A stretch of 64,000 bases of DNA from Akkermansiaceae bacterium (GCA_043716765.1 JAYSYA010000274.1:3082-67081); one strand, 5' to 3'. Positions 4,337-23,794 are shown, counted from the first letter of the stretch. The notes: generated by a model from the letters alone, not told the origin. Translations and numbers: made by a program.

Positions 4337-4343
4337 GGTTCTG

Positions 4344-5690
4344 TCAGACGGGCCGGTCGTGCATTGAATTACGCCAGAAATCCAAACGCTCCCGGATGCG
4401 TTTCTCCATGCCCTGGTCGCCGGGCTGATAGTAAATTTTCCCCTCCGGCAAATAAGCCTGCGGAATGTAGGCACCCTCGTAATCGTGGGCGTAAAGATAC
4501 CGCATCGACTCCTCGGGCTCGCCGGACGCCGCAGCGATTTTCTTGCGGGTGTTCGTCCGTAAATGCACCGGCACGGCGAGCGTGCGGCCGTTTTCCACGT
4601 CATCCATCGCCCGGCCCAGCGCGGCGTAAGCGGTGTTGGATTTCGGCGCGGTCGCCAGATAGACCGTGGCCTGCGCCAGCGGAATCCGGCCCTCCGGCAT
4701 GCCGATGAATTCGAACGCCGCGTGCGCGTCCATCGCCACCCGCAGGGCGTTGGAATCCGCCAAACCGATGTCCTCCGAGGCGGAAATCACTAACCGCCGC
4801 AAGATGAAGCGCGGATCCTCGCCGGCGTGCAGCATTTTCGCCAGCCAGTAGAGCGCGGCATCCGGATCGGAACCGCGGATCGACTTGATGAAGGCGGAAA
4901 TCGTGTCGTGGTGCGCGTCGCCGTGGGCATCGTAAACCACCGCCTTGCGCTGGATGGATTCCTCCGCCACCGCCAAGGTCAGGTGGACCGAGCCATCGTC
5001 ATCGGGAGTGGTCAAAACCGCCAGCTCCAGCGCGCTCAACGCCTTTCTAACGTCACCATCGGATTTCTCTGACAAGTGCCGCAACGCGGCGGGATCGGCG
5101 ACCACTTGATATCCGCCTAGGCCGCGCTCCACGTCGGATAGAGCCCGCTCAAGGACACCGACCACGTCAGCCACCGGCACCGGCTCGAGCTGGAAAATTT
5201 GCGACCGCGAGACCAACGGCGAGTTCACGTGGAAATACGGATTGTGCGTCGTCGCGCCGATGAATCTAACGATTCCGCGCTCGATGTGCGGCAGCAGCAC
5301 GTCCTGCTGGGCTTTGTTGAAACGGTGGATCTCGTCGATGAAAAGGATGGTGGTCTCGCCACGCAAGTCGCGCCAGGTCCGCGCTTGGTCGATCTTCGCC
5401 CGGATCTCCGCGACGTTAGATTCCACGCCGTTGAGCGATTCAAAACGCGAGCCGGTCGTCCGCGCGATCACGCTGGCAAGCGTGGTTTTACCGGTCCCGG
5501 GCGGCCCGTAGAAAATCAGCGAGGTAAAGCGGTCCGACTCGATCGCCCGCCGCAGCAATTTCCCGGGAGCGAGAATATGTTGCTGCCCGGCCACCTCTTC
5601 CAGCGAGCGCGGCCGCATCCGCGCTGCCAGCGGCTCGGCGGGATTCGGCTTGTCAGTTAGGGCGGCGGGAGTGGTGAAAAGGTCGGACAC
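4344..5690 (-). CDS. rarA: Replication-associated recombination protein A (AAA+ ATPase)
   Basis: PLAARMRPRSL, GPPGTGKT, FIDEIHRFNKAQQD, SAFIKSIRGSDPDA, YAHDY. Start probably GTG at 5690 (VSDLF). Confidence 0.93.
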   Translation of the reverse strand: MSDLFTTPAALTDKPNPAEPLAARMRPRSLEEVAGQQHILAPGKLLRRAIESDRFTSLIFYGPPGTGKTTLASVIARTTGSRFESLNGVESNVAEIRAKIDQARTWRDLRGETTILFIDEIHRFNKAQQDVLLPHIERGIVRFIGATTHNPYFHVNSPLVSRSQIFQLEPVPVADVVGVLERALSDVERGLGGYQVVADPAALRHLSEKSDGDVRKALSALELAVLTTPDDDGSVHLTLAVAEESIQRKAVVYDAHGDAHHDTISAFIKSIRGSDPDAALYWLAKMLHAGEDPRFILRRLVISASEDIGLADSNALRVAMDAHAAFEFIGMPEGRIPLAQATVYLATAPKSNTAYAALGRAMDDVENGRTLAVPVHLRTNTRKKIAAASGEPEESMRYLYAHDYEGAYIPQAYLPEGKIYYQPGDQGMEKRIRERLDFWRNSMHDRPV

Positions 5691-8407: not shown

Positions 8408-9390
8408 AAGGGGCACTGGCGATCGCCACCGACTTGAACCGTGAGCGACCTCACCGCGAGGGCGGCGTTAGAAGACGCGTTGATCCGGTTTTGATCGAAC
8501 ATGGTTCCCGGCGGCAGTTTGCCAGAACAGAAAGCGGAACCTAACGGCACGCCTCCCTCGTGCAAAGTCACCTCGCCGGATTTGCGGTCGTAACGGAGCG
8601 TCACCGTCCGCGGACCCACCACGAGATTGCCAGGGAGGATGATCGGAACTCTCTGCTTCACATCCAGCGACCACGTGCGCTCGGGACCATAGGAGTCACC
8701 GAAGAAAATCACCTCGGTGCCTTTGTTGAAGAAGCTCACCCCGGCCCAGCCGTCGGTGTGGAACTCACCGTTCGAAGGTCGCCCGGCTTCAAGAGTCACC
8801 AGCACAACCGGCCGCAATCCATCAGGCAGGGTTGTGGGAAGGGCGAGAAAAACCGAGTAATTCATCCCGTCGATGCGATCACCCGAGATCGAGGGATTTC
8901 CATAATCCGCCCGCCATTCCGCTTTGATGAACGGCCCCGCGACAATCGGTTCGAAATGACCCAAGCCCTTGGAGAAACGACTCCCGTCGGCGGTGAAGGG
9001 CTCGATGCCGTCGGCACCCGAAACACGTCCCGCCTCGCCTGCGGATAGCCAAACCGCATCCGCAGAGCAACTAACCGCCGCAATTAATGGCGCGGGCTTC
9101 GCTCCGCGCCGGTAGAACAAGACGGCCAGCAAAGCCACCGCGGCAGCGGCGGCGGCGGCGAACCAAACGACTGCCGCAGGCAAGTTCCGCCTTGAGACGG
9201 GCACCGGTTTGCCGGTGATTAGACGGCCTTCGAATTCCTCGCACAGCGAGTGGTGCAGCAGCGCGTATTCGCCATAGGATTTCTCCAGTTCCGGCTCTAG
9301 CCGAAGCCGCTGTTGGAAGCCCGCAAAGGCTTCCTGTGAGATCGATCCGTCCAAAACCCGTTAGATGTGTTGGTGGTCGCTGCGTTTCAT
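8404..9390 (-). pseudogene. FecR-type anti-sigma factor pseudogene (in-frame TAA at codon 10, FecR core apparently deleted)
   Basis: ATG 9390 reads MKRSDHQHI*RVLDGSISQEAF, in frame with ORF 9354-8404. Cytoplasmic N-terminus and TM helix, then SADAVW joined directly to LSAGEAGRVS. The ATG overlaps the TGA of an upstream sigma fragment. Confidence 0.7.
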
Positions 9391-9452
9391 CCGGCGTTGT
9401 TGGAAATCGCTTGAAGCTGGCGCTCGATGCAGCGCTTCAGCGCTGCTCGTAG
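9387..9452 (-). pseudogene. 3' end of an ECF sigma factor gene
   Basis: Reads LRAALKRCIERQLQAISNNAG*, a typical ECF region-4 terminus, with ATGA coupling to the anti-sigma gene. The rest of the gene is replaced by helicase sequence. Confidence 0.6.
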
Positions 9453-12400
9453 GTTAAGGTAACTCGATCTCCGACTTCCACAAACAGGTCTGCGCTTCCG
9501 TCGGAGGCGACCGTCACTTCGTCGGCTAGCTCCAAGCTAGATTTTTCCTCCGCTTCGTTTTCAACCATCTCTTCGAAGATATCTTCCGTCTCCCACTGTG
9601 TGGTATCCTCAACCGCGCTCTGAAGACGGCGTTCTTCCAGAAAGTTTCTCAGACGTTCGGTTTCCTGGCGTGGGTTGTAGAACCAGTCTGTAGACCATAT
9701 TCGGTGGATGCGCCCCTTCCACCCAAGCGATTCGAGAATCTCTTGCCGGATGCGGTCGCGGTCCCGCACCGATGATCCACTGTGATACGTCGCCCCGTCG
9801 CACTCGATGCCGACCAGAAACTCACCGGGGCGGTCGGGATTGCGAACGGCCATGTCGATGAAAAATCCGGCCACGCCTAACTGGGGCTTAACTTCGTAGC
9901 CCAAGGCTGTCACCACGTTGGCCACCGAAATCTCGAAGTCGCTGTCGGGCTCCCGCTCGCCCTCGTCGGTAGTCACAAGCACTCCTCGTTTTGCGAAATC
10001 GAGGTAGTCGCGCAAAGCCTTGGTGCCGAGCGGAGTATGCATGTCGGTGACGATGTCCTCCGGCGCCATGGAAGTGAAAAGTTCGATCCGTCTTCTGGAA
10101 CGCGTGAAAAGCACGTTGAGGCGACGCCACCCATCGGGCCTGCTGATGGGACCGAAGTTTTGACGAAGTTTGTCCGTCCCTGGAGCTTTCCCGAATGTGG
10201 TTGAGATGAAGATAACGTCCCGCTCGTCACCCTGCACGTTTTCGAGGTTCTTGACGAAGAATGGCCAGCCTTCAGCTTCCCACCTGCCTATGAAATCGGC
10301 ACCCTCGTCGAAGGTTTTAAGTTTTTTGTCGAGCAGTTCCTCGATCAGTTCCCTTTGGGTTTGGTTAAGTGTTACAACGCCGAGCGATTCGTCGGGATGT
10401 TTGATCATGTGCTCGAGAACAGCGTCCACCAGACGTTGTGCCTCCGGAATGTTCTGCCGGTCTTTATATGAGCCACCTTTTACGTAGCGATACTTTACCC
10501 CGAGGCCTGGGCTCTTGGCATAGGGTGATGGGAAGACAATCAAGTTCTTGTAGAAGTGGTGATTCGAGAATGCGATGAGCGATTCGTGGTGCGACCGGTA
10601 ATGCCAGCGTAGGCTGCGCACCGGCGTGAAAAGCTGCTGGCAAATATCGAGGATACTTTCCATGCCGCTGATGGCGGCCGGAGCCTCGTCTTCGTCCTCG
10701 TCGTCTCCCGCATCTAGCATGCGGTCAAAGAAGTTGGTCGGAGGCAACTGCTTTGGATCTCCAACCACAACTAGCTGATACCCGCGGGCGATAGCACCCA
10801 AGGCATCTTCGGGGCGCAATTGGGACGCCTCGTCCATGACGACAAGATCGAACTTCAGAGCTCCCTGCTCAAGGTATTGGGCTACGGAGTGCGGTCCCAT
10901 CATGAAACAGGGTTTGAGTTCAAGGAGGGCATTGCCAGCCCGTTTCAGGAGTTGGCGGATTGGAATGTGACTGCGCTTTTTGCTGATTTCACGCCGCAGC
11001 AGGTGCATGTCGGTGAAGTCGCCCACGGTCGTACCTCGCTGCCCTTCTGGCACACAGGAACACAGTTCAATCTGGCTGGCGAAGTCTTTCCCGGTCAGTG
11101 AGATGATCTCTGCATCGAGGGCACTGAAATCTGATCGTGTCTTGTCGTGGGCTGCTCCATTGAACCGGGACAGCTCGGGGAATTCTTGATAAATTGATCT
11201 CCCGATGGATTGATAGACCGCAAACTCGAATGCATAGGCAAGGACCGACGAAGGCATTCTGCCGGATTCGAGGGCATCCGTGAAACTACCCAATCTTCTT
11301 TGGCGGGCTTGCTTTCGCAGCAAGAGATACTTCGACCAAGGAAGTATGGATCTCGGTGCGGCTGCCACAGTTTCCAGCCTGCCTGCTATTTCAGAGGGCG
11401 AATCGACCTTCAAGCCGGCCCGTACCTGTTTCTGCCATTCGCCCCACGAGAATGAACCGCGGGTTGCCAGACTCTCCAAGATCTCCCGCGCCTGGCGGCA
11501 CCCTTCGTCAATCTCACCGAAGAGTCTCTTGGCGAAATACAGCGCATCCGTTGCGTCTTCGGACAAAAGGCGTCTGCATACGGATGTCGGGAGTTCGAGT
11601 GCGCAAACGGCTTCGCCCCACTCGTGAGTCTGGGAAAGACGATCCAAATCCGTGGTGGCTCCATCGAACACCAGTCCGAGCAGGCGGCGCACATCTTCCG
11701 ATCCAGAGAAGCGGTCGAGAATGGATTTGGCCTCTGCTTCCTCAGCCGCAGCAGTAAAGACGTCTTTTGCGGAGGTTCCGTTTCGAGCGAAGGGGGAGAT
11801 TCGCTCGAGCACGCCCCTTGCAGCCAAAGCATCCTCGCGAGCGTGGACGACCATAGCGGGCCAGCCATCGAACTGGTTCCACTTTGGAATGGGCGCGAGC
11901 TTTGACCACGCAGCGTCGAATTCCGATTTTGCCGTGGCAAACTCTTGGGCGATGGACAAAGGAACTTGCTCTCCGGCGAACGTGAGCGCCTGTAAAGCCG
12001 TTTCAGCGGCGAGAGACGCATGAGCGGTTACTACGGGCAAAATCTCGGTCCAAGGGTCTCTTGCCAGACTTGCAAGATGGTCAAACTCCTCGCCTCCAGC
12101 TTCTTTGAGTTCTTTCTGCCCCCGCATCAGCAAGGCAAAGTCGGGCGCGGCCTCATCGAGTTCGGCCCTGGCTTCCATGAGGCTCAGCGCAATTATCGGA
12201 GAAAGTGCAATATCGGCTCGGACACCGAAGAACCCTGTTACTAGTCCGAGTCTTTCAACCGCCTCGGCCAGGAATTTTAACGCCATGTCCCACCCGTCCA
12301 CCCTGGCCTCGCGGAGTCCGGCAACCTCGGAGCCAAGGATGTTTCTAACGGACGCCTCAGCTTCTGCCAACCTTTCGGCAGCGGCTTTTACGGAATCTGC

Positions 12401-15400
12401 TTTAGCAGAAAGTTCGAGAAAGATGTTCGCGGGTATGGCTGTCAGATCGACCATGTCAACGAGACCGGGGCATTCGACAAGGAGGGCCTTGGCCGACCGG
12501 TACCAATCGTCAAGGCGGGCCATTTTCTCGGGATCCGTATCAAGTCCGCGAAATAGCCCGCCAAAGCATTCCTTAAATTCAGGATTGGAAACGAAGGCGT
12601 CGCTGGCCTCGATCCACTCGGCCAATCTCGCCAATTCGTCCGCGCGCTGACGTCCGGAAAGCTTGCGTTTGTCCTTTGAAAGTCCGGCATGGAGCTTCCT
12701 TGCCCTGCGGTAATCACTGTCAATGAGCGCGAAGAAGCCGTCCTTGCGGCGAAGGGCCGAAACAGCTGATTTGATTTCGGAGGGTGGTGGCAGAGCGTCC
12801 AAGTAAAGGAACGACTCGAATGACGCTCTGCGCTCCTTTTCGGCTGCTAGGGCTCCGCTGATTTTTTGAATCAGTTCTGTAGTCTGCGCTTGCCCGAAGG
12901 TTGGGCGTCGGTATTCGAGGAGATCGTCCGGAGCCAAAGCTGCGAGATTGGCAAGGACCTTGGCTTGGGCTACCGAACGGTCGGTCAGATCGAAAGTAAG
13001 GCCGAGCCGTTCGCTCACCTGTCGGCAGCAGGCCAGCGCTTCAGAGCAAGTTGCGATTTCGGCTTCCAACTGGGATTTCAGTCGTTCTATTTCTGCGACG
13101 GGTTTTGAGGCAAGGGGGAAGGACGCCAGATTGCGGGCCTCGGTGAGCGCTGCTGTGTCGACCGAGGCGTTTTTTGTAAGTCCGGGAAGCCAGTCCGGAT
13201 CGGCAAGACGGGTGACAGATTCCGGCGTGGTGTCGAACGGAAGACCGCGCCGCGAGGCTATAGCCCCGACACGTGAGACTGCGTCGGATAGGCTCTGGGC
13301 CGTTTTTAGAAGGCTCGCTGCGCGGGCGGATATTGAACGGATGGGCAAGTGGGATAAGCCTGCCGCTGAGACCTTTGCGGAATTCGAAAGAAAAGTGTCC
13401 AGTGCGGTTTTATCGATTGGTCCGTGGGGAGCTGCGGAGACACGAGCCGCAGACTCGAAACACTCCAAGGCCTTTTCTAGCCGATCTACGGTTTCCAAGG
13501 CACCACCGATGTCGGAAGCCATCAGGTTGGATGACAGCATCCGCTTTTCGGCCAACCTGCGCATATCGTCTATTTCGTCTGAGGCAAGTCTTGGGCCATC
13601 AGCTAGAATTCGCGCGGCTGATTCGAAGAGTCTTCGCGTCTTGGTAATGCCCGCAGCAACGTCCGACAACAGCCGCGAACTACGCTGGCCTTTTGGGTCC
13701 GATTCGGCGTCGAACATTCGCGCCAGCAGTGCGGGATCCGCCTTCTCGGGTATCGGGGGAATTCTGTCCAACTTCGTTCGCACCTTGGCAATCGAGGCTG
13801 TGTCTGGCTGCTCCCGGAAACCGAAATAGCTTACGACCTCGCGGGCTGAAATATCGGCACTGCGCGCATGATCCAGAGCCTGCTTGATCGTTCTGGCGAT
13901 GGCTTCATCGTCGGACGGAGCCAGCGGATCGGGCCGAAAACCCCACCACGGATGTCCTGAGTCGAAACGGCCAATCACGTCATGAAGATCGGCAAGGTCG
14001 GCTAACTGCGACCTGCGAGACTCGATGTCGTCTTGAGTCCACTTGGATGCATCAGGAAAGCCAATGGCGTTAACCTCCGCCGAAAGGTCGCCAAGCTCCT
14101 GCCGGCGGCGTTCTGCAGACCAAAATACTTCGTTGACCGTAAAACCCAGAGCATTGCCGACGCTGCTTCCCATTAGCTCGGCATACCGGGCAAGCTCGGA
14201 CTTCTTGCGCTTGAGTGTGGCCAGCTTTGCTTGGAACCTTGCGGGGGCTGGAAATCGTTCATCAATCCGCGCCTGAATATCCTCGAGGAGTTTTTTCTTC
14301 TGCGTCTTATGTGAATGCAGCTCGAGGCAAAAGTGGCCGAGACCAGCATGATTGAGGCGGTGGCGCACCACCTCGAGGGCTGCCAGCTTTTCGGAGACGA
14401 ACAGCACTTTCTTACCCGTCGAAAGGGCTGCGGCGATGATGTTGGTAATGGTCTGCGACTTGCCGGTTCCTGGCGGCCCGTTGATCACGAGGTTTTTGCC
14501 GGAAAGCACGTCTATGATCGCGCTGTGCTGCGACGAGTCGGCATCAAAGATAAGGGGTTGCGTGGCCTCTGGTCGCTGGTCGATGAGGTAGTCCTCGGCG
14601 TACAGCCCTCCGCCACCGCCTCCAGAGCGGCCCGAAAAAACTGACTTAATCAATTCGTGTTCGGTTAGTCCCGGGTTCTTCTTGGTGTCCAGATCAGACC
14701 AGATGGCGAGCTTGCCGAAGGAAAGCATGCCAAGGCTAATCTGTCGGCGCACCTTCCAGCGGCGCTTATTTTTGATCGCCTGCTCGATGCGGCTGAAATA
14801 GGCCTCCGGCTCTTCCTCTTCTTCAAACTCGGGGATGGAGAGTGTGAAATCGCGGCGCAGTTTTTCGCGCAAAGTGTGGTTCTCGGCCAGATCCTCACCG
14901 TTGTGCTGGACTGAATATTGATAGGTCCGCGTCTCCTGATCGATAGCACCCCTGGCGAGTGCCACCGGAAGCGAGAGGAGTGGAGCGAGCATCGCTCTCT
15001 CTGAGTCCTCGCTATCATAAAACTCGAGAAACCCGAACACCAGAAACAGCATGTTTGTACCGGTTTCTTCGATTGCCGTCTTTGCTTCACTGTTGATTTT
15101 ACGCAGCTGCTTCTCCAGCTCAGCCGGGTAAAACAAGGTTTGTAGCCCATGTAGCCTGCGTCCGCTGGCACCTGCCGGGTTCGGTTCGAACTCGAATGAA
15201 GGGGAGATACCCAGACGGGAGGCATGCAGCTTCACTTCAGGACGCTTTCCTTCGTAGGTATCGGGAGACGGCTCAGGAACGTATTTGAAGGGGACTCCCT
15301 TGCCGTCCATATAAAGTCGTGCGAACACTAAATTGATGTTGGGCTCGTCAGCAATCTGCACGCAGCGCCCCTTCGGATGTCGGAAGTTGAGCAAGCGATT

Positions 15401-15538
15401 GCGGGCGGAAAGGTCTAGCAGTCGCGTCCTTAGCCGCTCAATGGCTTCACCGACCGTAATGCCACCCGAGAAAATCTGGCCAACAAGCGTCTCCGCATCA
15501 TTTGCTTGGTAATCGCTGGTTTGAAGTTCGTCATCCAT
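9437..15538 (-). CDS. DUF4011 - SF1 helicase - Vsr/DUF559-like nuclease protein (Hhe-like), C-terminus probably truncated
   Basis: RLLDLSARNRLLNF (DUF4011); GPPGTGKSQT; VVMDEASQ; GDPKQLPPT; NVQGDERD; RRLNVLFTRSR; nuclease IDMAV...GIECDGATYHS...RIWSTDW. Start at ATG 15538 (MDDELQ). Codon usage is less GC-rich than the flanks. Confidence 0.88.
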   Translation of the reverse strand: MDDELQTSDYQANDAETLVGQIFSGGITVGEAIERLRTRLLDLSARNRLLNFRHPKGRCVQIADEPNINLVFARLYMDGKGVPFKYVPEPSPDTYEGKRPEVKLHASRLGISPSFEFEPNPAGASGRRLHGLQTLFYPAELEKQLRKINSEAKTAIEETGTNMLFLVFGFLEFYDSEDSERAMLAPLLSLPVALARGAIDQETRTYQYSVQHNGEDLAENHTLREKLRRDFTLSIPEFEEEEEPEAYFSRIEQAIKNKRRWKVRRQISLGMLSFGKLAIWSDLDTKKNPGLTEHELIKSVFSGRSGGGGGGLYAEDYLIDQRPEATQPLIFDADSSQHSAIIDVLSGKNLVINGPPGTGKSQTITNIIAAALSTGKKVLFVSEKLAALEVVRHRLNHAGLGHFCLELHSHKTQKKKLLEDIQARIDERFPAPARFQAKLATLKRKKSELARYAELMGSSVGNALGFTVNEVFWSAERRRQELGDLSAEVNAIGFPDASKWTQDDIESRRSQLADLADLHDVIGRFDSGHPWWGFRPDPLAPSDDEAIARTIKQALDHARSADISAREVVSYFGFREQPDTASIAKVRTKLDRIPPIPEKADPALLARMFDAESDPKGQRSSRLLSDVAAGITKTRRLFESAARILADGPRLASDEIDDMRRLAEKRMLSSNLMASDIGGALETVDRLEKALECFESAARVSAAPHGPIDKTALDTFLSNSAKVSAAGLSHLPIRSISARAASLLKTAQSLSDAVSRVGAIASRRGLPFDTTPESVTRLADPDWLPGLTKNASVDTAALTEARNLASFPLASKPVAEIERLKSQLEAEIATCSEALACCRQVSERLGLTFDLTDRSVAQAKVLANLAALAPDDLLEYRRPTFGQAQTTELIQKISGALAAEKERRASFESFLYLDALPPPSEIKSAVSALRRKDGFFALIDSDYRRARKLHAGLSKDKRKLSGRQRADELARLAEWIEASDAFVSNPEFKECFGGLFRGLDTDPEKMARLDDWYRSAKALLVECPGLVDMVDLTAIPANIFLELSAKADSVKAAAERLAEAEASVRNILGSEVAGLREARVDGWDMALKFLAEAVERLGLVTGFFGVRADIALSPIIALSLMEARAELDEAAPDFALLMRGQKELKEAGGEEFDHLASLARDPWTEILPVVTAHASLAAETALQALTFAGEQVPLSIAQEFATAKSEFDAAWSKLAPIPKWNQFDGWPAMVVHAREDALAARGVLERISPFARNGTSAKDVFTAAAEEAEAKSILDRFSGSEDVRRLLGLVFDGATTDLDRLSQTHEWGEAVCALELPTSVCRRLLSEDATDALYFAKRLFGEIDEGCRQAREILESLATRGSFSWGEWQKQVRAGLKVDSPSEIAGRLETVAAAPRSILPWSKYLLLRKQARQRRLGSFTDALESGRMPSSVLAYAFEFAVYQSIGRSIYQEFPELSRFNGAAHDKTRSDFSALDAEIISLTGKDFASQIELCSCVPEGQRGTTVGDFTDMHLLRREISKKRSHIPIRQLLKRAGNALLELKPCFMMGPHSVAQYLEQGALKFDLVVMDEASQLRPEDALGAIARGYQLVVVGDPKQLPPTNFFDRMLDAGDDEDEDEAPAAISGMESILDICQQLFTPVRSLRWHYRSHHESLIAFSNHHFYKNLIVFPSPYAKSPGLGVKYRYVKGGSYKDRQNIPEAQRLVDAVLEHMIKHPDESLGVVTLNQTQRELIEELLDKKLKTFDEGADFIGRWEAEGWPFFVKNLENVQGDERDVIFISTTFGKAPGTDKLRQNFGPISRPDGWRRLNVLFTRSRRRIELFTSMAPEDIVTDMHTPLGTKALRDYLDFAKRGVLVTTDEGEREPDSDFEISVANVVTALGYEVKPQLGVAGFFIDMAVRNPDRPGEFLVGIECDGATYHSGSSVRDRDRIRQEILESLGWKGRIHRIWSTDWFYNPRQETERLRNFLEERRLQSAVEDTTQWETEDIFEEMVENEAEEKSSLELADEVTVASDGSADLFVEVGDRVTLTYEQR

Positions 15539-15610
15539 GCTCTTCCGGAAAGTCACCAAATTACCTAGCAAATTCCCAGACTAGACAAGGGGGAATTCGT
15601 TTTCAGGGTA

Positions 15611-15730
15611 TCAATCCAAGAACTTCCCGGGATTCAAGATGCCGTTCGGATCGAACGCGTTCCTGAGCGCGCGGTGGGAAGGAGTCATCGCCGAGCGCAT
15701 GGCGGATCCAGGGCTTTTTGGCGAGGCCCA
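15611..15730 (-). pseudogene. 3' fragment of an FAD-linked oxidase (GlcD/FAD-oxidase_C type), frameshifted
   Basis: [18 protein letters not shown], then in another frame [21 protein letters not shown]. DPxGILNPGK is the family's hallmark C-terminus. Confidence 0.75.
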
Positions 15731-15732
15731 CC

Positions 15733-16117
15733 CTATCAGGTGGCTAAGCCCGGCGCATCAAGCTCGTCTCCGAACTCACTCAAGGCCGCGCTCATCCAGC
15801 CCAATTTCTATCTGATCGAAGAAGCCACCGTCGGCCTCCACCTCGAAGACGTCCAGCGCCTCATCGACGTCCTCCACCACCTCGTCGATGAGGGCCACAC
15901 CGTGGTCGTCATCGAGCACCACATGGCCGTCGCCGCCGAAGCTGACTGGATCCTCGACCTCGGCCCCTAAGCCGGCGACGGCGGCGGCCAGATCATCGCC
16001 CAAGGCCCGCCTGAAAAAATTGTGAAGTCCAAGACCTCCCGCACCGCGCCGTTTCTCAGGAAATCCTTAGGGAATTGGAGTTTCCCGCGATTTCCCAGCT
16101 TCAGCACGCTGAAATAA
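15733..16117 (+). pseudogene. uvrA: 3' fragment of a UvrA-type ABC ATPase with two nonsense codons and a frameshift
   Basis: [15 protein letters not shown] (TAA 15745), frame change, then [38 protein letters not shown]...[33 protein letters not shown] (TAA 15968). Confidence 0.85.
15985..16058 (+). repeat. uvrA 3'-end direct repeat, copy 1
   Basis: 74 bp, 65/74 identical to 17329-17402 by manual alignment. Confidence 0.9.
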
Positions 16118-16183: not shown

Positions 16184-17317
16184 GTGAACATCGAGGCATT
16201 CAAAGCAGGTCATCTGACCAAGCAATTCAAGTATTCCAGTTTTCAGCCGGAGACCATCAATCGGCAGTGGACTTGGCTGGATCCTGAGGTGAATGGACTG
16301 CTTTCCGAAGCAAATCGCTGGCTTGGCGAGCTGAACGCCTTCGGGAAAATCCTTCCTGACGTGGACACTTACATCCGGATGCACGCACTCAAAGAAGCCA
16401 ATGCGTCCAGCCGGATCGAAGGAACCCAGACGCGGATGGAAACCGCTGCCCGACCCATCGAGCAGGTAGAGCCGGAAAAGCGTGACGACTGGCAGGAGGT
16501 TCATCGCTATCTGGAAGCGATGGATCATGCCCTCGAAGGTTTGGGAAAGCTGCCGCTATCGAACCGGCTGCTTTGCCAGACCCACGCCATTCTGCTCGCG
16601 GGTGGACGGGGCGAAACAAAATCCCCCGGCGAGTTCCGCAGGAGCCAAAACTGGATCGGCGGATCCAGCCTCACCGACGCGGTGTTCATCCCTCCCCATC
16701 ACGACGATCTTCCCGCGCTCCTCACGGATCTTGAATCCTTCTGGCACAATGACGACATCCGGGTGCCCCACCTCATCCGGATCGCCATCAGCCACTATCA
16801 ATTCGAAACCATCCACCCGTTCCTTGATGGCAACGGGCGGATTGGCCGGCTGTTGATCACCCTTTATCTGATGGACAAGGAATTGCTGGTGAAGCCCTGC
16901 CTCTATCTATCCGATTTCCTCGAACGCCATCGGGACAGCTACTACGACGCCCTCACCGCCGTCCGCACCCGTAACGATCTGTTACACTGGGTTCGCTTTT
17001 TTCTGAGCGCTGTCCTTGAAACCGCGAAGGGTGCCGTGGCGACTTTCCGAAGCATCATGGAGCTGAAACAAGAGCTGGACGCGAAAATTCTTGGCTTGGG
17101 TCGCAGATCCGAAACCGGGACGCGTTTGCTCCAATACCTTTATATCAATCCTTATGTCGATGTGCCGGAAGTAACCAAGGCTCTCGGTATTTCTCCCGCC
17201 ACCGCCAACGCCTTGCTCGCCGAGTTTCTAAGGCTCGACATTCTAACTGAGCTTACCGGCTACCGGCGCAACCGCATCTTCCATTTCCACGCCTATTTCA
17301 AGCTTTTCCAGTCCTGA
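16184..17317 (+). CDS. Fic family protein (class II-like, C-terminal wHTH)
   Basis: Canonical HPFLDGNGRIGR; N-terminal inhibitory-type SSRIEG motif; PGEFRRSQNWIG; C-terminal HTH-like region ending GYRRNRIF. Confidence 0.92.
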   Translation: MNIEAFKAGHLTKQFKYSSFQPETINRQWTWLDPEVNGLLSEANRWLGELNAFGKILPDVDTYIRMHALKEANASSRIEGTQTRMETAARPIEQVEPEKRDDWQEVHRYLEAMDHALEGLGKLPLSNRLLCQTHAILLAGGRGETKSPGEFRRSQNWIGGSSLTDAVFIPPHHDDLPALLTDLESFWHNDDIRVPHLIRIAISHYQFETIHPFLDGNGRIGRLLITLYLMDKELLVKPCLYLSDFLERHRDSYYDALTAVRTRNDLLHWVRFFLSAVLETAKGAVATFRSIMELKQELDAKILGLGRRSETGTRLLQYLYINPYVDVPEVTKALGISPATANALLAEFLRLDILTELTGYRRNRIFHFHAYFKLFQS

Positions 17318-17328
17318 CCCGAAGACTA

Positions 17329-17402
17329 CGGCCAAATCATCGCCCAAGGCCCACCAGAGAAAATCGCCAGGTCCAAAACCTCCCGCACCGCGCCGTTTCT
17401 CA
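17329..17402 (+). repeat. uvrA 3'-end direct repeat, copy 2
   Basis: Encodes GQIIAQGPPEKIARSKTSRTAPFL, starts 11 nt after the fic stop, and reads on to TGA at 17420-17422. Confidence 0.9.
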
Positions 17403-17583
17403 AGATTGCTTTACGGCTTTGAAAAATGGACCGCGAGATTCTTCTCGCCCGAGGCCAACTGGAAGCGCGAAATTCATTCCGCGCGGAATTCTACGCATGC
17501 CTTTTCCCTCGCCATTCCCAGCCGGCGTTCACAACCTCCCGCAGCCTCCGGATCACCTGAGCCTCGCTAAAGCTTTCCCTGAA

Positions 17584-17775
17584 ATGTCCGTCCACTCGTC
17601 CCTCCAAAGCATCGGGAAACTCGAATCCGATCTCTGGGAAGCCGCGGACAACCTCCGCAGAATCGCTGAATGCAATTTCCTCCAACGCGAAACCCTCGCC
17701 CTCCAAAATCAAAGACTCCGCGCCGCGCGCGACCTGCTGCTGCCGAAGCCGATGAGCGGGGTGATCGAAGTTTGA
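17584..17775 (+). pseudogene. In-frame deletion scar: type I R-M HsdM N-terminus fused to HsdS C-terminus (63 aa)
   Basis: MSVHSSLQSIGKLESDLWEAADNLR (HsdM start motif LW.AAD.LR) joined at about 17659 to ...QNQRLRAARDLLLPKPMSGVIEV* (HsdS end motif RDLLLPKLMSGE). Confidence 0.8.
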
Positions 17776-17796: not shown

Positions 17797-18642
17797 ATGA
17801 TCCGTCCCCAAGATTCCGCCAGCGGCGGCAAGCCAGCATTCGATTCGAAGTCCTTGTTCCTGCAGCTCGAGCGTTCGCTTGGCAAGGTCCGGCCTGACGA
17901 GATCGGCGAGTCCCAGGAATGTTATTATGATGCGATGGAGGCCCGGACGGAGGAGGAGGCGCTTCGGCTTATGTCACGCGCGCTGGAACTCGATCCCGGG
18001 AATACGGACGCGTGGTTGCTGATGATGAGCCACACGCCGCCGCTGTCCGCGGACGAAGAGATCGGGACGCTGCGCAGGATCGTCGCGGGGGCGGAGGAGC
18101 GGATGGGCAAGCAGGCGTTCGAGGAATTCGCCGGTCATTTCTGGGGATTTGATGAAACCCGGCCCTACATGCGGGCGCGGGCCGCGCTGGCGGATGCGCT
18201 GCACCGTGCCGGGCGGATCGAGTCCGCCGCGGCGGAAGTGGAGGGCATGTTGGAGCTGAATCCGGGCGACAACCAAGGGCTGCGCTACCGCTTGCTGGGA
18301 ACCTATCTGGCCCTCGGGCGGATGGACGACGCCAGACGCCTGTTCGGCCAATATCCGGATGAGTTCGATTTCAACACGGTGTTCGCATGGGCGAAGGTGC
18401 TGGAGCGGTTCCTGTCCGGGAAACCGGCGGAGGCGTTGAAAGCGGTAATGGCAGCGGAAAGGCAGAATGGATTTTCAAAGAGCTATCTTCTGGGGCACCG
18501 GAAAATTCCCAAGAGCCTGCCGGATTCTTACGCGTCTGGCAGCAAGGAAGAGGCGGCATGTTTCGCCGGGGATCTGCAGTTGGCTTGGAATGCACATCCT
18601 GCGGCGAAGAAATGGCTGGCGGGCATGAATCCCAAAAAGTGA
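17797..18642 (+). CDS. Alpha-helical TPR-like hypothetical protein
   Basis: ALELDPGNTDAW, ETRPYMRARAALA, LNPGDNQGLRY TPR-like repeats. Intact 281-aa frame. Confidence 0.7.
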   Translation: MIRPQDSASGGKPAFDSKSLFLQLERSLGKVRPDEIGESQECYYDAMEARTEEEALRLMSRALELDPGNTDAWLLMMSHTPPLSADEEIGTLRRIVAGAEERMGKQAFEEFAGHFWGFDETRPYMRARAALADALHRAGRIESAAAEVEGMLELNPGDNQGLRYRLLGTYLALGRMDDARRLFGQYPDEFDFNTVFAWAKVLERFLSGKPAEALKAVMAAERQNGFSKSYLLGHRKIPKSLPDSYASGSKEEAACFAGDLQLAWNAHPAAKKWLAGMNPKK

Positions 18643-18731: not shown

Positions 18732-18906
18732 TCAGGCGACGGCTCGCTTGGGGAGCAACTTGAACAAATCTTCAAAGCGATCCAGCGTGAACGGCGTGCG
18801 CTTACCGACTTTCAGATCAGTCGCACGCGGCATAGACCTTCGAATCCAGCGAGGTCGCGGTGACGGTCTTTTTCGGGGCGGTTTTCTTGGCGCGTCTGGC
18901 GGGCAT
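18732..18906 (-). pseudogene. hsdM: Second HsdM deletion scar (N-terminus joined to near C-terminus)
   Basis: MPARRAKKTAPKKTVTATSLDSKVYAACD*, then in a shifted frame from about 18820, TDLKVGKRTPFTLDRFEDLFKLLPKRAVA*. Both resemble ends of EcoAI/EcoEI-like HsdM from memory. Confidence 0.6.
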
Positions 18907-18912
18907 GATGAA

Positions 18913-20364
18913 TCAGGAGGAAAGCCAGTAACAGGCGAGCGGAGCGGGGATGGCGAGGATCTTCGCGTTCAGCAACTCGCGTTCGCGGCCTTGCTTGGCC
19001 GAAGGAACATCGAACAGGCCGAAGTCCTCCCAACGCCGGGAAATGATGTAGCCGTGCTCGACCTTTTGGTTTTCGAGAAACAAGCGCAGGCCTTTGAACT
19101 TCCCGAGATCGAGCGGGCTATCCTGGTATTTTACCTCGAAAGGTACCAGGCGGTCGCCGATTTCAGCGATCAAATCCACTTCCAAATCCTTGTTAGCCTT
19201 GTCCCGCCAATAGGTGAAAACCGGTTGGTCCTCGTAGTAGCGGGTGAAGACGTGTTTGAAAAAAGCCGTCTCCACCGCGGCTCCCAGCCGGTCGGGCCGC
19301 TCCAACAGTTTCCGGCCGAGCAACAGCACCGACCCGGGCAGCGCGGCGTCCGCCAGATAGATTTTAGGCTTTCCGCGCAGGATCTCCTTGCCATAGCCGT
19401 GCGGGCGGAGCCGATAGATCAGGTGGGTGGACTCGAATAGATCGAGGAAGTTGTTCACCGAGTTCCGGTTCACGCCGTCCAGCTCGCGGGAAAGCGCGGC
19501 AACGTCGAGGATGCCGCCATCGTGGTAGCACAAATAGAGGAAAATCTTCTCCACCTCCAGCACCCGGCGCACGCCGTAGAGCGCGGTCATGTCGCGCTTC
19601 AACACCTTGTCCACGATGTCCTCGCGCAGCAGCCGCTGGCAGCGCGTTAGATCAGAAACGCTGGCCGGTTCCGGGAATCCGCCGCGCAGGAGGTAGTCAT
19701 GGAAATGCGGAGTCAGCGACTTCGCCTGGGCTGCCGTGCGGGCGAAGTCGCCGGGGCTCCAGTCGAAACACTGTTTCAGTGACTTCACCATCGGCACCGG
19801 GCCGGGATCGATCCCGCGCAGTTTGAGAAACTCCCCGAAGGAAAGCGTAGCCAGCGGCAATGTCTGCCAACGTCCGACCCCGGATTCCGCCTGCGCGGCA
19901 TGAAGCGGGCTGGCCGAGCCCGTCACCACGATCCGCCGCCCGCGCTTGAAATCGACCTGGTGCTTCAGCCACGTCTGCCACTCCGAGACATACTGGATTT
20001 CATCGAGAAACAGCCATTGCGGCTGCCCTGCGGTGGGCGGGAAAAGCTCTTCCCATGCCGCCAAGGTGCGCTCCAGCCCGGCGAGCTTTAGAATGGGATG
20101 GTCGAAAGTGGCGTAGAGGATGTTTCCGGTGGGCGGGCCATTTCCCACCAGATTGCGGATCGCTTGGCGCAGCAAGGTGGTTTTCCCGGTCTGCCGCGCT
20201 CCGCTCAGAACGAGCGCCCGGCGCGATTCCGTGTCGTTGATCCACGCCCGGATCGGCACGCTCGCCGATCGTTCCCAATCCGGCAGGTCGGATACGGGCA
20301 GCCCGGTCCACCAAGGATTGAACTCCTGGAGGACGGCGAAAAGTTCGGCTTTGGGCAGTTCCAT
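18913..20364 (-). CDS. AAA_14 ATPase with DUF4143 / PD-(D/E)XK-like C-terminus
   Basis: GARQTGKTT, LFLDEIQY, VTGSAS, RGGFPE, PKIYLADAAL, GAAVETAFF, EVDL...FEVKY. Confidence 0.9.
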   Translation of the reverse strand: MELPKAELFAVLQEFNPWWTGLPVSDLPDWERSASVPIRAWINDTESRRALVLSGARQTGKTTLLRQAIRNLVGNGPPTGNILYATFDHPILKLAGLERTLAAWEELFPPTAGQPQWLFLDEIQYVSEWQTWLKHQVDFKRGRRIVVTGSASPLHAAQAESGVGRWQTLPLATLSFGEFLKLRGIDPGPVPMVKSLKQCFDWSPGDFARTAAQAKSLTPHFHDYLLRGGFPEPASVSDLTRCQRLLREDIVDKVLKRDMTALYGVRRVLEVEKIFLYLCYHDGGILDVAALSRELDGVNRNSVNNFLDLFESTHLIYRLRPHGYGKEILRGKPKIYLADAALPGSVLLLGRKLLERPDRLGAAVETAFFKHVFTRYYEDQPVFTYWRDKANKDLEVDLIAEIGDRLVPFEVKYQDSPLDLGKFKGLRLFLENQKVEHGYIISRRWEDFGLFDVPSAKQGRERELLNAKILAIPAPLACYWLSS

Positions 20365-20422
20365 GCTTAATTCGCCTGTTTATGCTCTCTATAAAGAGCT
20401 TAATCCAGCCGATTATGCTTTT

Positions 20423-21042
20423 TTACGAAAAAACCCGTCTCAACGCGGCGGCCGGGAGGGACTTGATGGCTTTCAACTCGGCGCGCGCCGCGGTGAGGAT
20501 TTCCGTGGCGGCGGTGAGGCGGGCGTCGAGTTGCATAGTGAGATTGTCCTGCTGCTTGCGGCTCGGAAGGCAGACGTGAAACTCCCGTGCAGCGGGCATG
20601 TAAATGGTTTGATGGATCGCGCCGGACGACTTGGTTTCCATGTAGGCCTTCGATGCGCGCAGGGCCTGCATGAGGAAACGAGGTGCCAGATCGCTGCCGC
20701 AGATCCAGTTGAAGAAATGCTGACGGTGGCCATCGGTCGGCCTGCCCATGATTGTTGTGAAGCCGACTTGAACATCACGGCCGAAGACGACGGTGTCTTT
20801 GGGGAGAATGCGGGCGGACGAATTCTTAATTCCCAGAGGATTGGTGTAGCCTTTGGTCTCCATCGCCACCTTTGCCGTCGATGGCGCGGATGTCGGGGAA
20901 GGAAACCCAGGGAATTTCGCCGCCCCAACCCGGTTGGCGGCGGCTGGGGGTGTGACCGGATTTGAGACCGGCCTGGGTGGCAAGCCGCTGCCACGACCCA
21001 CCCGCCGAGCCGCAATCAATCCATCGTGTTTTTCCCGCTCAT
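20423..21042 (-). pseudogene. hsdS: Type I R-M specificity subunit remnant (single TRD, frameshift near 20870)
   Basis: KSGHTPSRRQPGWGGEIPWVSFPDIRAIDGK, +1 frameshift, then VAMETKGYTNPLGIKNSSARILPKDTV...LPSRKQQ...KSLPAAALRRVFS*. ATG 21042 overlaps the TGA of the duplicated hsdR end; most of the first TRD is missing. Confidence 0.78.
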
Positions 21043-21048
21043 GCGGCT

Positions 21049-21077
21049 AACAACCTCCGTTTGGTTTCCATGACGAG
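21049..21077 (-). repeat. hsdR 3'-end direct repeat, copy A
   Basis: AACAACCTCCGTTTGGTTTCCATGACGAG (29 bp) is identical to 21947-21975; weaker similarity extends about 25 bp further. The minus strand reads LVMETKRRL. Confidence 0.92.
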
Positions 21078-21116
21078 CCAGGCGGGATTGGCGGAGGCTT
21101 TGGCCGGATGGTTTTC

Positions 21117-21551
21117 TCATACCGCTTTAAGGAGTTGGAGGTCGGGGAGTGAATAGGATTTGAAGCCTGCATCGAAGGTAACGAAGGCAAGGTCCGCGGT
21201 TTTCGCCCAAGCGGCGAGATAGGCGTCCATCCAAAGCTTGGGCGAGGCCGTGCGCCCGGCGATGTGTTGCCGCCATGCCCCGTCGAGCCCGGCGGGTTCC
21301 ATGGGCAGGTAGGCGGTGCGGATGTCACCGACGAGTTTTTCCCAAACGTGCCAGGCATCGTCGGGGGTGTGTGTGTCGTCCCCCATGACGCTGCGGTTGA
21401 TGAGCAGGCGGAGGACGGTTTGCTGGAGCGGCCGGCACCAGCAGCAGGTTGCGGCAGGGCGCTCGCTCCACCAGTCAATGGCTGCGGCGTGATGTTGGTG
21501 GCTCTCGACGAGGATGGGCAGCCAGACGTTGGCGTCAACGAGGGCGGGCAT
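21117..21551 (-). CDS. vapC: VapC-type PIN domain toxin (TIGR00028-like)
   Basis: MPALVDANVWL, SHQHHAAA..WW, LWMDAYLAA, FVTFDAGF acidic PIN residues. Confidence 0.88.
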   Translation of the reverse strand: MPALVDANVWLPILVESHQHHAAAIDWWSERPAATCCWCRPLQQTVLRLLINRSVMGDDTHTPDDAWHVWEKLVGDIRTAYLPMEPAGLDGAWRQHIAGRTASPKLWMDAYLAAWAKTADLAFVTFDAGFKSYSLPDLQLLKAV

Positions 21552-21882
21552 GGGCGGCGAGTTCTTCTTGATCCATTTCCTCAAGCGCTTGCTCGACGGC
21601 TGCGGCGGGGATTTGCGGTGCTCCTTTTCTGGCTGGGATCAGCGGACCGCTGAGGCGGTAGCCCTGTGGGTAAGCCATACGCAGGCTCTCGGCGTCCCGA
21701 TGGCGGCTCAGTTGGGCCGGGGTAACGACCGGGATTTCGGCAGTGGTCCGCGAGCTACCACCCTCATCAAGCCATTTCTGAAAAAGATCCGCAGCCACCT
21801 CGCGGATGCGCCGCCCTTCTTCGGCCGTGCGGGCCTTGACCCGCCGGTAAAGGTCGTCCGGAATGTCGATGGTTGCCTTCAT
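21535..21882 (-). CDS. Ribbon-helix-helix antitoxin (VapB-like)
   Basis: MKATIDIPDDLYRRVKARTAEEG RHH start. Lies immediately upstream of the PIN gene and overlaps it. Confidence 0.82.
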   Translation of the reverse strand: MKATIDIPDDLYRRVKARTAEEGRRIREVAADLFQKWLDEGGSSRTTAEIPVVTPAQLSRHRDAESLRMAYPQGYRLSGPLIPARKGAPQIPAAAVEQALEEMDQEELAAHARPR

Positions 21883-21936
21883 GGATGGCAAGTTAGCTGG
21901 TTTCCTGTATCGCGTCAAGGTAGGCGGTGGGTGTCA

Positions 21937-22368
21937 TCAGGCGACGAACAACCTCCGTTTGGTTTCCATGACGAGTTGGGCGGGATGGCCGTGAGCCTGG
22001 AGGGCGGCGAGGCCGCCGGCGCGTTTGACGGCGGGGACGTCGAAGAGATCGGGGAATTCCAGGCCCGACGAGGGCGAGCAGCACGCCTTCGGTGGTGTTT
22101 CCGAAACCGGCGAGCCAGGCGGCATTAGCGGCGGCGAAGGCTTCCACGCGGTGGAGGCGGGCGCGGCGAGCTTTACCTTGTAGTCGGCCACTGAGACGGG
22201 CATCGCCTTGCCATCGACCTCGGCGACGAACGAGATGCCGCCATCGAGGATTTCCACGGTGACGCCACGGGCCTCGACTTTGATCGGGACGGGATTTCCA
22301 CCGCCTTCTTCCTCACTATCAGACGCGGGCGTTTTTCTCCGGGTGGCCATCCTTGACCGCGGCGGCAT
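21937..22368 (-). pseudogene. hsdR: Type I R-M restriction subunit C-terminal remnant with internal deletions and frameshifts
   Basis: IKVEARGV...VDGKAMPVSVADYKVKLAA / RVEAFAAANAAWLAGF / GLEFPDLFDVPAVKRAGGLAALQAHGHPAQLVMETKRRLFVA*, spread over two frames. Matches recalled EcoEI-type HsdR C-termini. Confidence 0.65.
21947..21975 (-). repeat. hsdR 3'-end direct repeat, copy B
   Basis: Exact 29-bp match to 21049-21077. Confidence 0.92.
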
Positions 22369-22414
22369 TCGAGCCGAAGACGGTTACACTGTCGTCGCCG
22401 GCGCGCGGCTTTTT

Positions 22415-23794
22415 TTAGAAGTGAATCGCGTGGCCTTCCGCCGCGAGGGTCGCCTCGTGGATGACTTCCGACATCGTCGGATGGGCGTGGATGGTGGCGT
22501 GGATTTCGGCACTGGTTAGCTCTTGGTCGAGGGCGAGTCCCATTTCGGCGATGAGCTCGGTGGCGTTCTCGCCGATGATGTGCGCGCCTAGCAGTTCGCC
22601 GTGTTTCTTGCCGTAAAGGAGCTTGGCGAATCCGTCCGGCTCACCGGAGGCGATGGCCTTGCCGATGGCGACGAACGGGATTTTCCCGACGGTGTATTCG
22701 ATGCCTTCTGCCTTGAGCGCGCGCTCGGTTTTCCCAACAGAAGCGACTTGCGGGTGGCAATAGGTGCAGCCGGGGAAATTGGTGACTTTGCGCGGCTTGT
22801 GGCCTTCGAGATACAAGCCTTCGACACACTGCACGGCTTCGAACGATGCGACGTGGGCGAGCCATGGCGGGCCGTTGATGTCGCCGGCGGCGTAAACTCC
22901 GGGGATGGAGGTTTCGTAGCGATCGCCGCATTTGATGTAGCCGCGGTCGAGCTCGGGCTCCAAGCCGCCGGGAAGCACGGGCTGGATGCCGATGGCGACC
23001 AGGCAGACTTCGGCGCTGAGCGTGCCGTTTTCCTTGGGACCTTCCACCGTGAGTTCGACGTGGGTGCCCTTGTCCACCGCGGCGGTGATCTTGGTGTTCG
23101 TGAGGCAGCGGATGCCTTGCTTGATGAGGGATTTTTCCAAGGCGTCGCCCACTTCGTCGTCCTCGACGGGGAGGATCCGCGGGGCCATTTCGACGAGCGT
23201 CACCTTGGTGCCGAAGGCATTGTAAATGTAGGCGAATTCGACGCCGATCGCGCCCGCGCCGATGATCAGCATCTCCTTCGGCTGCTGCGGGAGGTTCATC
23301 GCCTCCTTGGAGCCGATGACGGATTTGCCGTTGAACGGCAGGCCGGGAAGGGGGCGGCTTTTGCAACCGGTGGCGACGAGGATGTCCTTGGTTTCAAGGA
23401 GCTGGCGCGAGCCGTCGTTGCCGACCACGCCGACCTTGCCGGTGCCTTCGACCGAGCCGAAGCCGCGGACGTAGGCGATGCCGTTCTTTTTAAGCAGATA
23501 CTCAATGCCGCCGGCGAGGCGGTCGGAAACCTTGCGCGAGCGACCGACCACGGCGGACCAGTCGTAGGAAAGCCCTTCGATTTTCAAACCAAACTCAGCG
23601 GCCTTGTGGGTGAGCATGTGATAGACCTCGGCATTTTTGAGCAAGGCCTTGGTGGGAATGCAGCCCCAGTTGAGACAGGTGCCGCCAGCGCGGTCCGCTT
23701 CGACGCAGGCGACTTTTTTTCCAAGTTGGGCGGCGCGGATGGCGGCGACGTAGCCGGCAGGGCCGCCACCGATGACAATGAGATCGTAGGCCAT
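22415..23794 (-). CDS. lpdA: Dihydrolipoyl dehydrogenase
   Basis: GGGPAGY, GGTCLNWGCIP redox disulfide, GAGAIG, HAHPTMSE. Confidence 0.96.
   Translation of the reverse strand: MAYDLIVIGGGPAGYVAAIRAAQLGKKVACVEADRAGGTCLNWGCIPTKALLKNAEVYHMLTHKAAEFGLKIEGLSYDWSAVVGRSRKVSDRLAGGIEYLLKKNGIAYVRGFGSVEGTGKVGVVGNDGSRQLLETKDILVATGCKSRPLPGLPFNGKSVIGSKEAMNLPQQPKEMLIIGAGAIGVEFAYIYNAFGTKVTLVEMAPRILPVEDDEVGDALEKSLIKQGIRCLTNTKITAAVDKGTHVELTVEGPKENGTLSAEVCLVAIGIQPVLPGGLEPELDRGYIKCGDRYETSIPGVYAAGDINGPPWLAHVASFEAVQCVEGLYLEGHKPRKVTNFPGCTYCHPQVASVGKTERALKAEGIEYTVGKIPFVAIGKAIASGEPDGFAKLLYGKKHGELLGAHIIGENATELIAEMGLALDQELTSAEIHATIHAHPTMSEVIHEATLAAEGHAIHF

Follow-up and report, generated by a model that had tools for sequence, protein, structure and literature searches.

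Type I restriction-modification (R-M) operons may hold embedded accessory or defence genes, such as prrC in the EcoprrI hsd locus. Pseudogenes in bacterial genomes are reportedly eroded by deletions (Mira, Ochman and Moran 2001; Kuo and Ochman 2010), and chromosomal toxin-antitoxin (TA) loci are said to stabilise the neighbouring DNA against large deletions (Szekeres et al. 2007, cited in PMC4803016). DNA can also be inserted together with a long duplication of its target (Nobusato et al. 2000; Furuta, Abe and Kobayashi 2010, PMC2853133). Here, we describe a locus that can be compared with each of these cases, in a stretch of 64,000 nucleotides (nt) from an Akkermansiaceae bacterium (GCA_043716765.1, JAYSYA010000274.1:3082-67081), which we will call the window. 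Its minus strand carries, from 22384 to 18747, what is left of an EcoAI-like type I R-M operon of the order hsdR-hsdS-cargo-hsdM. It is very probable that this operon, of a type IB-like kind with a cargo slot between hsdS and hsdM, was acquired horizontally and then eroded, its hsd genes being deleted while its passengers, a vapBC TA pair and a COG1373 ATPase gene, were kept. The process is a known one, in which deletions erode a dead defence operon within the limits set by neighbours that are selected or addictive, and the locus reveals no new mechanism.

Compared with ordinary pseudogene erosion, the locus is alike in its piecemeal deletions of small and medium size and in having relatives at different stages; it differs in that all three genes of an operon have reached the scar stage and in that the pattern of survivors is set by two embedded functional cassettes. 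The intact relatives of the operon resemble the prrC case, since they carry unrelated cargo between their hsd genes (a ParE-type TA pair, unknown proteins or a COG1373 ATPase), whereas the family is set apart by its hsdR-hsdS-cargo-hsdM order and its ATGA-coupled hsdR and hsdS, and the window by the death of the host genes. As in TA stabilisation, an intact VapBC pair persists amid DNA under deletion, and it is the main survivor in two related contigs (L163 and L164), but the protective effect would here be read from the deletion pattern alone.

The interval reveals little of this when it is read directly. Open reading frame (ORF) listing and Pfam searches return three clean minus-strand genes (115, 144 and 483 amino acids, aa), and the surrounding DNA contains only short, odd ORFs. 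Pfam finds nothing for hsdR or hsdM in the raw remnant ORFs and matches that of hsdS only with an E value of 0.22; scans of the whole genome give no match to PF08463 (EcoEI_R_C), the hsdR remnant included, and none to N6_Mtase (PF02384) at the hsd locus. The references were reached through a database search with a 198-aa hsdS-like ORF, which led to Methylase_S proteins of 57-90% identity, and the contigs of these were used. The homology of the remnants becomes clear only once close intact relatives serve as queries. Indeed, tblastn of the proteins of the intact operon of contig L020, whose aa numbering we follow, against the window aligned every remnant claimed in the first-pass annotation, always on the minus strand; with L020 and L023 as references, significant homology is collinear over all three genes. 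The statement that no remnant is visible as a clean ORF holds insofar as there are no clean genes, but parts of them do appear as chimeric or truncated short ORFs (143 aa, and 198 or 146 aa), and ORFs matching them are present in public protein collections (P0019, P0001). A HMMER search of 1.84 billion proteins with the hsdR ORF returned mostly other short C-terminal fragments, and a PDB sequence search with the 143-aa ORF of the hsdR remnant gave spurious repeat-protein matches only.

Four pieces of hsdR are left, and the frames alternate among them (Table 1). The most upstream one, which begins about 30 nt past the lpdA stop codon, also matches L020 at the DNA level (blastn, 91% over 57 nt), and the two most downstream jointly reach an E value of 3e-20 in tblastn. 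At least four deletions separate these pieces from a full gene, namely a 5' truncation to aa 240, the loss of aa 261-591 (about 1 kb), that of aa 646-708 (about 190 nt), and a frameshifting loss of 26 nt near aa 742-750. The gene had been described as a C-terminal remnant with internal deletions and frame changes, which is right as to the deletions and the frames, but the remnant is not purely C-terminal, since it retains a 21-aa piece of the helicase domain. A functional type I HsdR combines an SF2 helicase/translocase core with a nuclease domain; here, there remain aa 240-260 and three C-terminal pieces, in different frames.

A functional HsdS has two target recognition domains (TRDs) and two conserved helices in one frame. 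In the window, TRD1 and the central conserved region are absent, and only TRD2 and the C-terminal conserved region are left, TRD2 being split by a 1-nt insertion, which agrees with the predicted hsdS remnant with one TRD and a frameshift. The two parts match aa 68-118 (21020-20871, frame -3) and aa 105-264 (20911-20429, frame -1, E 2e-60), and database homologues of the fragment carry PF01420. Both the 1-nt insertion (GGCAAAGG versus GGCAAGG) and a +4/-1 indel pair are seen by comparison with L141, an 88%-identical contig of 848 bp at about 1x coverage that carries an independently truncated hsdS copy. As for hsdM, the scar that had been proposed is a short out-of-frame join of two ends of the gene and begins 6 nt past the ATPase stop codon. 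Codons 1-30 and 421-445 alone are left of it, so that aa 31-420 and 446-570 are lost, and with them the N6_Mtase catalytic domain and the last 125 aa.

The share of the original gene that is left amounts to about 19% for hsdR, 53% for hsdS and 9% for hsdM. Separate internal deletions in all three hsd genes, as first proposed, are thus found: at least four in hsdR, the losses in hsdS and hsdM, and in addition the 1-nt and 4-nt indels. Because the helicase, nuclease and methyltransferase domains are absent, R-M activity would have been lost. In a simulation under a naive model, five random internal deletions of the observed sizes miss both passengers in 0.5% of trials.

Table 1. Remnants and passengers of the hsd locus in the window (positions from its first letter; aa numbers are those of the L020 relative).
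Feature	Position	Strand	Description
hsdR fragment 1	22322-22384	-	aa 240-260 of the 792-aa relative, helicase domain 1; tblastn 81% identity, E 1e-4
hsdR fragment 2	22162-22323	-	aa 592-645; 70% identity, E 2e-17; other frame than fragment 1
hsdR fragment 3	22067-22165	-	aa 709-741; 76% identity
hsdR fragment 4	21937-22077	-	aa 747-792 (22077-21940, 61% identity) and stop codon; last 55 nt are repeat copy 1
vapB antitoxin gene	21535-21882	-	115 aa from ATG at 21882; RHH-like
vapC PIN-domain toxin gene	21117-21551	-	144 aa; overlaps the end of vapB by 17 nt
Second copy of hsdR 3' end (repeat copy 2)	21039-21093	-	has the GGAGG and ATGA overlap with which hsdS begins in intact operons
Vestigial hsdS start and N-terminal half of TRD2	20871-21042	-	MSGKNTMD and stop, then a different frame; TRD1 and central conserved region deleted
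hsdS C-terminal half of TRD2 and C-terminal conserved helix	20423-20911	-	146-aa ORF after 1-nt insertion; contains +4/-1 indel pair
ATPase upstream region	20365-20452	-	conserved, AT-rich; 27-nt palindrome GGATTAAGCTCTTTATAGAGAGCATAA at 20376-20402
AAA_14/DUF4143 (COG1373) ATPase	18913-20364	-	intact, 483 aa; PD-(D/E)XK-type C-terminal domain; PADLOC candidate PDC-S01
hsdM scar	18747-18906	-	codons 1-30 (18906-18820; 83%, E 2e-8) fused out of frame to codons 421-445 (18821-18747; 72%, E 2e-7)

On either side of the vapBC cassette, there is a copy of the hsdR 3' end. The second copy, which the first-pass annotation had already recognised as a duplicated hsdR end, is recovered both by tblastn (aa 777-792 at 21089-21042) and as a 55-nt direct repeat (21937-21991 and 21039-21093) with 47 of 55 positions identical (85%), a perfect core of about 30 nt and diverged edges. 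A 25-nt core of this repeat occurs exactly twice in the window, where 0 occurrences are expected by chance. The repeat corresponds to the last 16-18 codons of hsdR, both copies reading ...METKRRL..A before the stop; L020 HsdR ends in ...ETKRRLFVA exactly like copy 1, and this also rules out that the repeat is a conserved helix of hsdS. At the empty hsdR/hsdS junction of L020 and L054, a single copy of the repeat is found. The insert between the copies holds vapBC only and is devoid of any mobility gene. These features are those listed for insertion with long target duplication (PMC2853133), that is, repeats of more than 30 bp over the 3' end of a gene, no mobility gene and a single-copy empty site; as to the near-identity of the repeats, also listed, the core is perfect and the edges have diverged. 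The case differs from those described in that the cargo is a TA pair and not an R-M unit, in that the target is inside an R-M operon, and in that the repeats are 85% identical. Another, unrelated antitoxin cassette is found in a similar duplication in L023, where two copies of the hsdR 3' end (8941-8984 and 9672-9713) surround a 70-aa gene of the Unstab_antitox type and a degraded partner. The hsdR/hsdS junction was therefore struck at least twice and looks like a recurrent insertion site.

The antitoxin and toxin genes are intact, as had been claimed. VapC matches PF01850 (PIN, E 1.9e-9) and TIGR00028 (82.9 bits, for a cut-off of 73.6), and it has many full-length homologues of 144 aa. For VapB, the DNA-binding fold has only a weak RHH_10 match (E 0.012), and the same 115-aa gene is paired with vapC in L163 and L164 as well. 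Upstream of vapB, there is a conserved promoter-like element, TTGACG-17 nt-TAACTT.

The ATPase also proved to be as intact as initially reported: PF13173 (AAA_14, E 4e-28) is followed by PF13635 (DUF4143, E 5e-29), the Walker A (GARQTGKT), Walker B (LFLDE) and EVD...FEVK motifs can all be read intact in the sequence, and the protein aligns end to end with its relatives at 91-97% aa identity. DUF4143 is classed as a PD-(D/E)XK nuclease family (PMC3424549). The protein belongs to COG1373 and matches seven PDC-S01 models of PADLOC, the best with an E value of 1.9e-44; PDC-S01 is a candidate system only, and a defence activity of this protein is not known. The ratio of non-synonymous to synonymous substitution rates (dN/dS) of the gene is 0.054 against L061 (dS 0.28), 0.056 against L062 (dS 0.39) and 0.039 against L023 (dS about 1.45), and these values, of about 0.05, support strong purifying selection on the ATPase as judged from sequence divergence. 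The gene has stayed intact in at least six lineages, which differ in how their hsd genes are broken, and it occupies the hsdS-hsdM slot also in L023 (91% aa identity) and in Roseibacillus persicicus (L054 and L082, 71%). The palindrome GGATTAAGCTCTTTATAGAGAGCATAA upstream of it occurs once in the genome and accompanies the ATPase in every context seen. In L163, this palindrome stands alone right after vapC (4798-4824), the ATPase gene being gone, and it may act as an operator or as a site of recombination. In L061, a Luteolibacter metagenome-assembled genome (MAG), the ATPase cassette (93% nt identity) lies between partly overlapping copies (355-456, 2213-2275 and 3996-4398) of the sequence found at 15613-15776 in the window, and it is thus another passenger between duplicated host sequences.

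The relatives give the operon family its shape. L020 encodes, in this order, an HsdR of 792 aa (ResIII, SWI2_SNF2, EcoEI_R_C), an HsdS of 385 aa, two cargo proteins of 61 and 524 aa, an HsdM of 570 aa and a PLD protein. Its hsdS is a full frame that starts at the ATGA overlap with the hsdR stop, so that this operon is fully intact. L020 HsdR matches the EcoAI/FtnUII family model NF046051 with an E value of 6e-135, but its 451 bits are below the 550-bit cut-off. A survey with L020 HsdR against 400 genomes of the order, followed by local tblastn, added seven genomes with the order hsdR-hsdS-[0 to 2.9 kb of variable cargo]-hsdM. The hsdS-hsdM gap contains a ParE-type TA pair in L058 and L059, unknown proteins in L055-L057 and the COG1373 ATPase in L054, and it is without cargo in L060; across L055-L060 and L020, the gap holds 141+262 aa, 247+153 aa, 372+125+415 aa, 61+524 aa or no gene.

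The damage varies from one relative to the next. L023 has the order hsdR, small antitoxin gene, hsdS, 483-aa AAA_14/DUF4143 ATPase gene, hsdM, with three nonsense codons (two of them in hsdR, the third in hsdS) and an hsdM that has suffered both a deletion and a frameshift; in L054 (R. persicicus KCTC 12988), hsdR carries a -1 frameshift in a T-run. Relatives with the proposed hsdR-hsdS-ATPase-hsdM order, of which an intact example was to be looked for, thus exist (L023, L054), with damaged hsd genes. L145 has an in-frame deletion in hsdS and an hsdM cut after codon 89, and in L143 an hsdS with a nonsense codon is joined to about 160 nt of hsdR. In L061 and L062 (ATPase of 97% and 95% aa identity), no more than about 30 nt from the 3' end of hsdS are kept in front of the ATPase, and the neighbours differ and comprise uvrA-like fragments and an Hhe C-terminus; in L164 vapBC (89% nt identity) is followed by a partial hsdR end. 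From their sequences, the relatives look like a decay series that would run from intact (L020) to point-inactivated (L023, L054), then to partly deleted (L143, L145), on to the operon of the window, and finally to passengers with hsd scars of only about 30 nt (L061, L062, L164). Wherever the ATPase fills the hsdS-hsdM slot (the window, L023, L054, L143, L145), the hsd genes are broken, in lineage-specific and independent ways. However, L023, L143 and L145 came from a search with a length filter that favours truncated HsdS proteins, so that it is not established as a rule that an operon with the ATPase is always broken. Operons with another cargo, or with no cargo, look intact as far as they were checked: hsdR is full-length in all six that the unbiased search gave (L055-L060), and all three genes are confirmed only in L020. 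The hsdS fragment and the ATPase were also considered as a conserved two-gene module, which is ruled out by L061 and L062, where the fragment is missing, and by L143 and L145, where it is a broken hsdS tail.

In the course of events that we propose, the operon would have held two autonomous passengers while it was still in use. The COG1373 ATPase-nuclease gene, with its own promoter region, would have occupied the hsdS-hsdM slot, and the vapBC cassette would have inserted at the hsdR/hsdS ATGA junction, duplicating some 50 nt at the 3' end of hsdR, so that neither the hsdR stop nor the ribosome-binding site of hsdS would have been lost. Restriction would have been inactivated afterwards, and the usual deletional bias of bacterial genomes would then have taken the greater part of every hsd gene through seven or more separate events. 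The deletions that survived would be those touching neither the ATPase, through purifying selection, nor vapBC, through selection or toxin-mediated addiction. As only such deletions would survive, the operon would collapse gene by gene and not in one large deletion. The sparing of the passengers had been taken to imply selection on them or addiction. For the ATPase, selection is supported (dN/dS 0.04-0.06, intact lineages as above); for the predicted VapBC pair, retention through addiction or selection is plausible and would fit the data. It is rather doubtful, although conceivable, that the ATPase cassette itself triggers the decay of its host, in which case its own promoter and palindrome would disturb hsdM expression and select for restriction loss, and the cassette would then outlive its host with a small hsd scar.

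Several points weigh against this erosion of a once working operon. Both passengers, vapBC included, are found at about 89-93% nt identity in unrelated contexts (L061, L062, L163, L164), and part of their intactness could be due to mobility or recent arrival. L163 has lost the ATPase coding sequence and kept the palindrome alone beside vapBC, so that the ATPase is not indispensable. Youth might then explain why the passengers are intact, either because vapBC and the ATPase cassette entered an operon that was already dead or because they are still on the move, and their integrity would in that case tell nothing about selection or addiction. The long target duplication around vapBC would fit such an arrival, as would the vapBC cassette of L163, which sits with its promoter between an ABC transporter and a HAD hydrolase, and the ATPase cassettes of L061 and L062, which share the boundaries 20452 and 18913 of the window and lie among uvrA-like fragments. 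We nevertheless hold this to be unlikely. The ATPase fills the hsdS-hsdM slot also in L023, which is distant (dS about 1.45), and in Roseibacillus L054, where synonymous sites are saturated; this makes the co-residence old, and the hsdS 3' scar of L061 and L062 and the hsdR-end scar of L164 indicate that those copies derive from an hsd context and not the reverse. Moreover, the stop of hsdR and the start of hsdS both survived the vapBC insertion, as would follow from filtering by selection in an operon that still worked, the two repeat copies have diverged to 85% identity, and the dN/dS of the ATPase means constraint whatever its age. Since copies of about 90% nt identity exist in non-hsd contexts, the passengers are autonomous and mobility contributes to their intactness; they are probably mobile cassettes, and not merely survivors of the decay.

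A further point against the erosion of dead genes comes from the hsdS fragment itself. Over 134 codons, the 146-codon fragment (20423-20863, minus strand) differs from L141 (284-724) by 8 non-synonymous and 24 synonymous changes, a dN/dS of 0.09 that is surprisingly low for a pseudogene and bears no sign so far of relaxed constraint. Either the decay is very recent, or some selection persists. The fragment could on this count be alive, as a working partner of the ATPase or of an HsdM encoded elsewhere in the genome, all the more as its +4/-1 indel pair preserves the frame and as L143 and L145 have similar fragments, of 145-169 aa, ahead of the ATPase. These last, however, are the tails of longer hsdS frames, interrupted by a nonsense codon in L143 and by an in-frame deletion in L145, the N-terminal half of the TRD of the fragment is missing, and L141 is a contig of 848 bp at about 1x coverage. 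We read the constraint as recent decay, and co-option is unlikely because L061 and L062, the closest ATPase relatives, do without the fragment, their ATPase being under unchanged constraint; that any of the remnants is alive is, overall, very improbable. The last point against is the assembly, a MAG of 336 contigs with 2.7% contamination, in which genes that are intact in the organism could have been collapsed or mis-joined from the reads of a mixed population. Such an artefact would have to produce at least seven deletions with specific junctions, as well as the indels, inside an 84-kb contig, and yet leave the passengers between the scars free of errors. Independent assemblies of other samples (L061, L062, L141, L143, L145, L164) also display related but different decayed states, and we give an artefact hardly any credit.

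Together with its relatives, the locus offers an unusually complete set of snapshots of the death of a defence operon, from point inactivation to gene-by-gene deletion and then to orphan passengers with 30-nt scars. The pattern supports the known ideas of deletional bias and of retention mediated by TA pairs or by selection. In practical terms, the 143-aa and 146-aa hypothetical ORFs are pseudogene debris that should not be annotated as genes, and no type I methylation motif is to be expected from the hsd locus. In Verrucomicrobia, COG1373 ATPases and VapBC pairs that are found as orphans may often be all that is left of an R-M operon.

The wreck is flanked by lpdA (22415-23794, minus strand) and by a convergent TPR gene (17797-18642). 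The nt homology to the closest relatives in the genus (81-92%) stops exactly at the lpdA stop codon (22415-22417), and the nearest of them has ilvC and housekeeping genes after lpdA, so that what follows lpdA in the window is a variable island. Its other border was sought through the synteny of lpdA with the genus relatives and was not reached. A DNA-level search of 40 relatives detected no hsd homology, but only the ATPase in G040, outside an hsd context, and short TA motifs.

The locus lies in a defence island, together with an Hhe-like helicase, a SoFic-type Fic protein and a second, miniature hsdM-hsdS fusion. The helicase (2044 aa; 9437-15571, minus strand) matches the PADLOC Hhe and PDC-S37 models, and its L061 counterpart extends further past the common ...DGSADLFVEVGDRV motif, so that the copy of the window may be clipped at its 3' end. 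The intact fic gene (16184-17317, plus strand) is bracketed by a 102-nt direct repeat, 79% identical (15976-16077 and 17320-17421), which corresponds to the 3' end of a uvrA-like ABC gene; of this gene, only a remnant (15613-16077) is left in the window, and its C-terminal half is intact in L061. Finally, six-frame translation reveals a short ORF (17584-17775, plus strand) in which an HsdM-like N-terminus (LESDLWEAADNLR) is fused to an HsdS C-terminus (...LRAARDLLLPKPMSGVIEV), and which looks like a second, unrelated type I system shrunk to about 190 bp.

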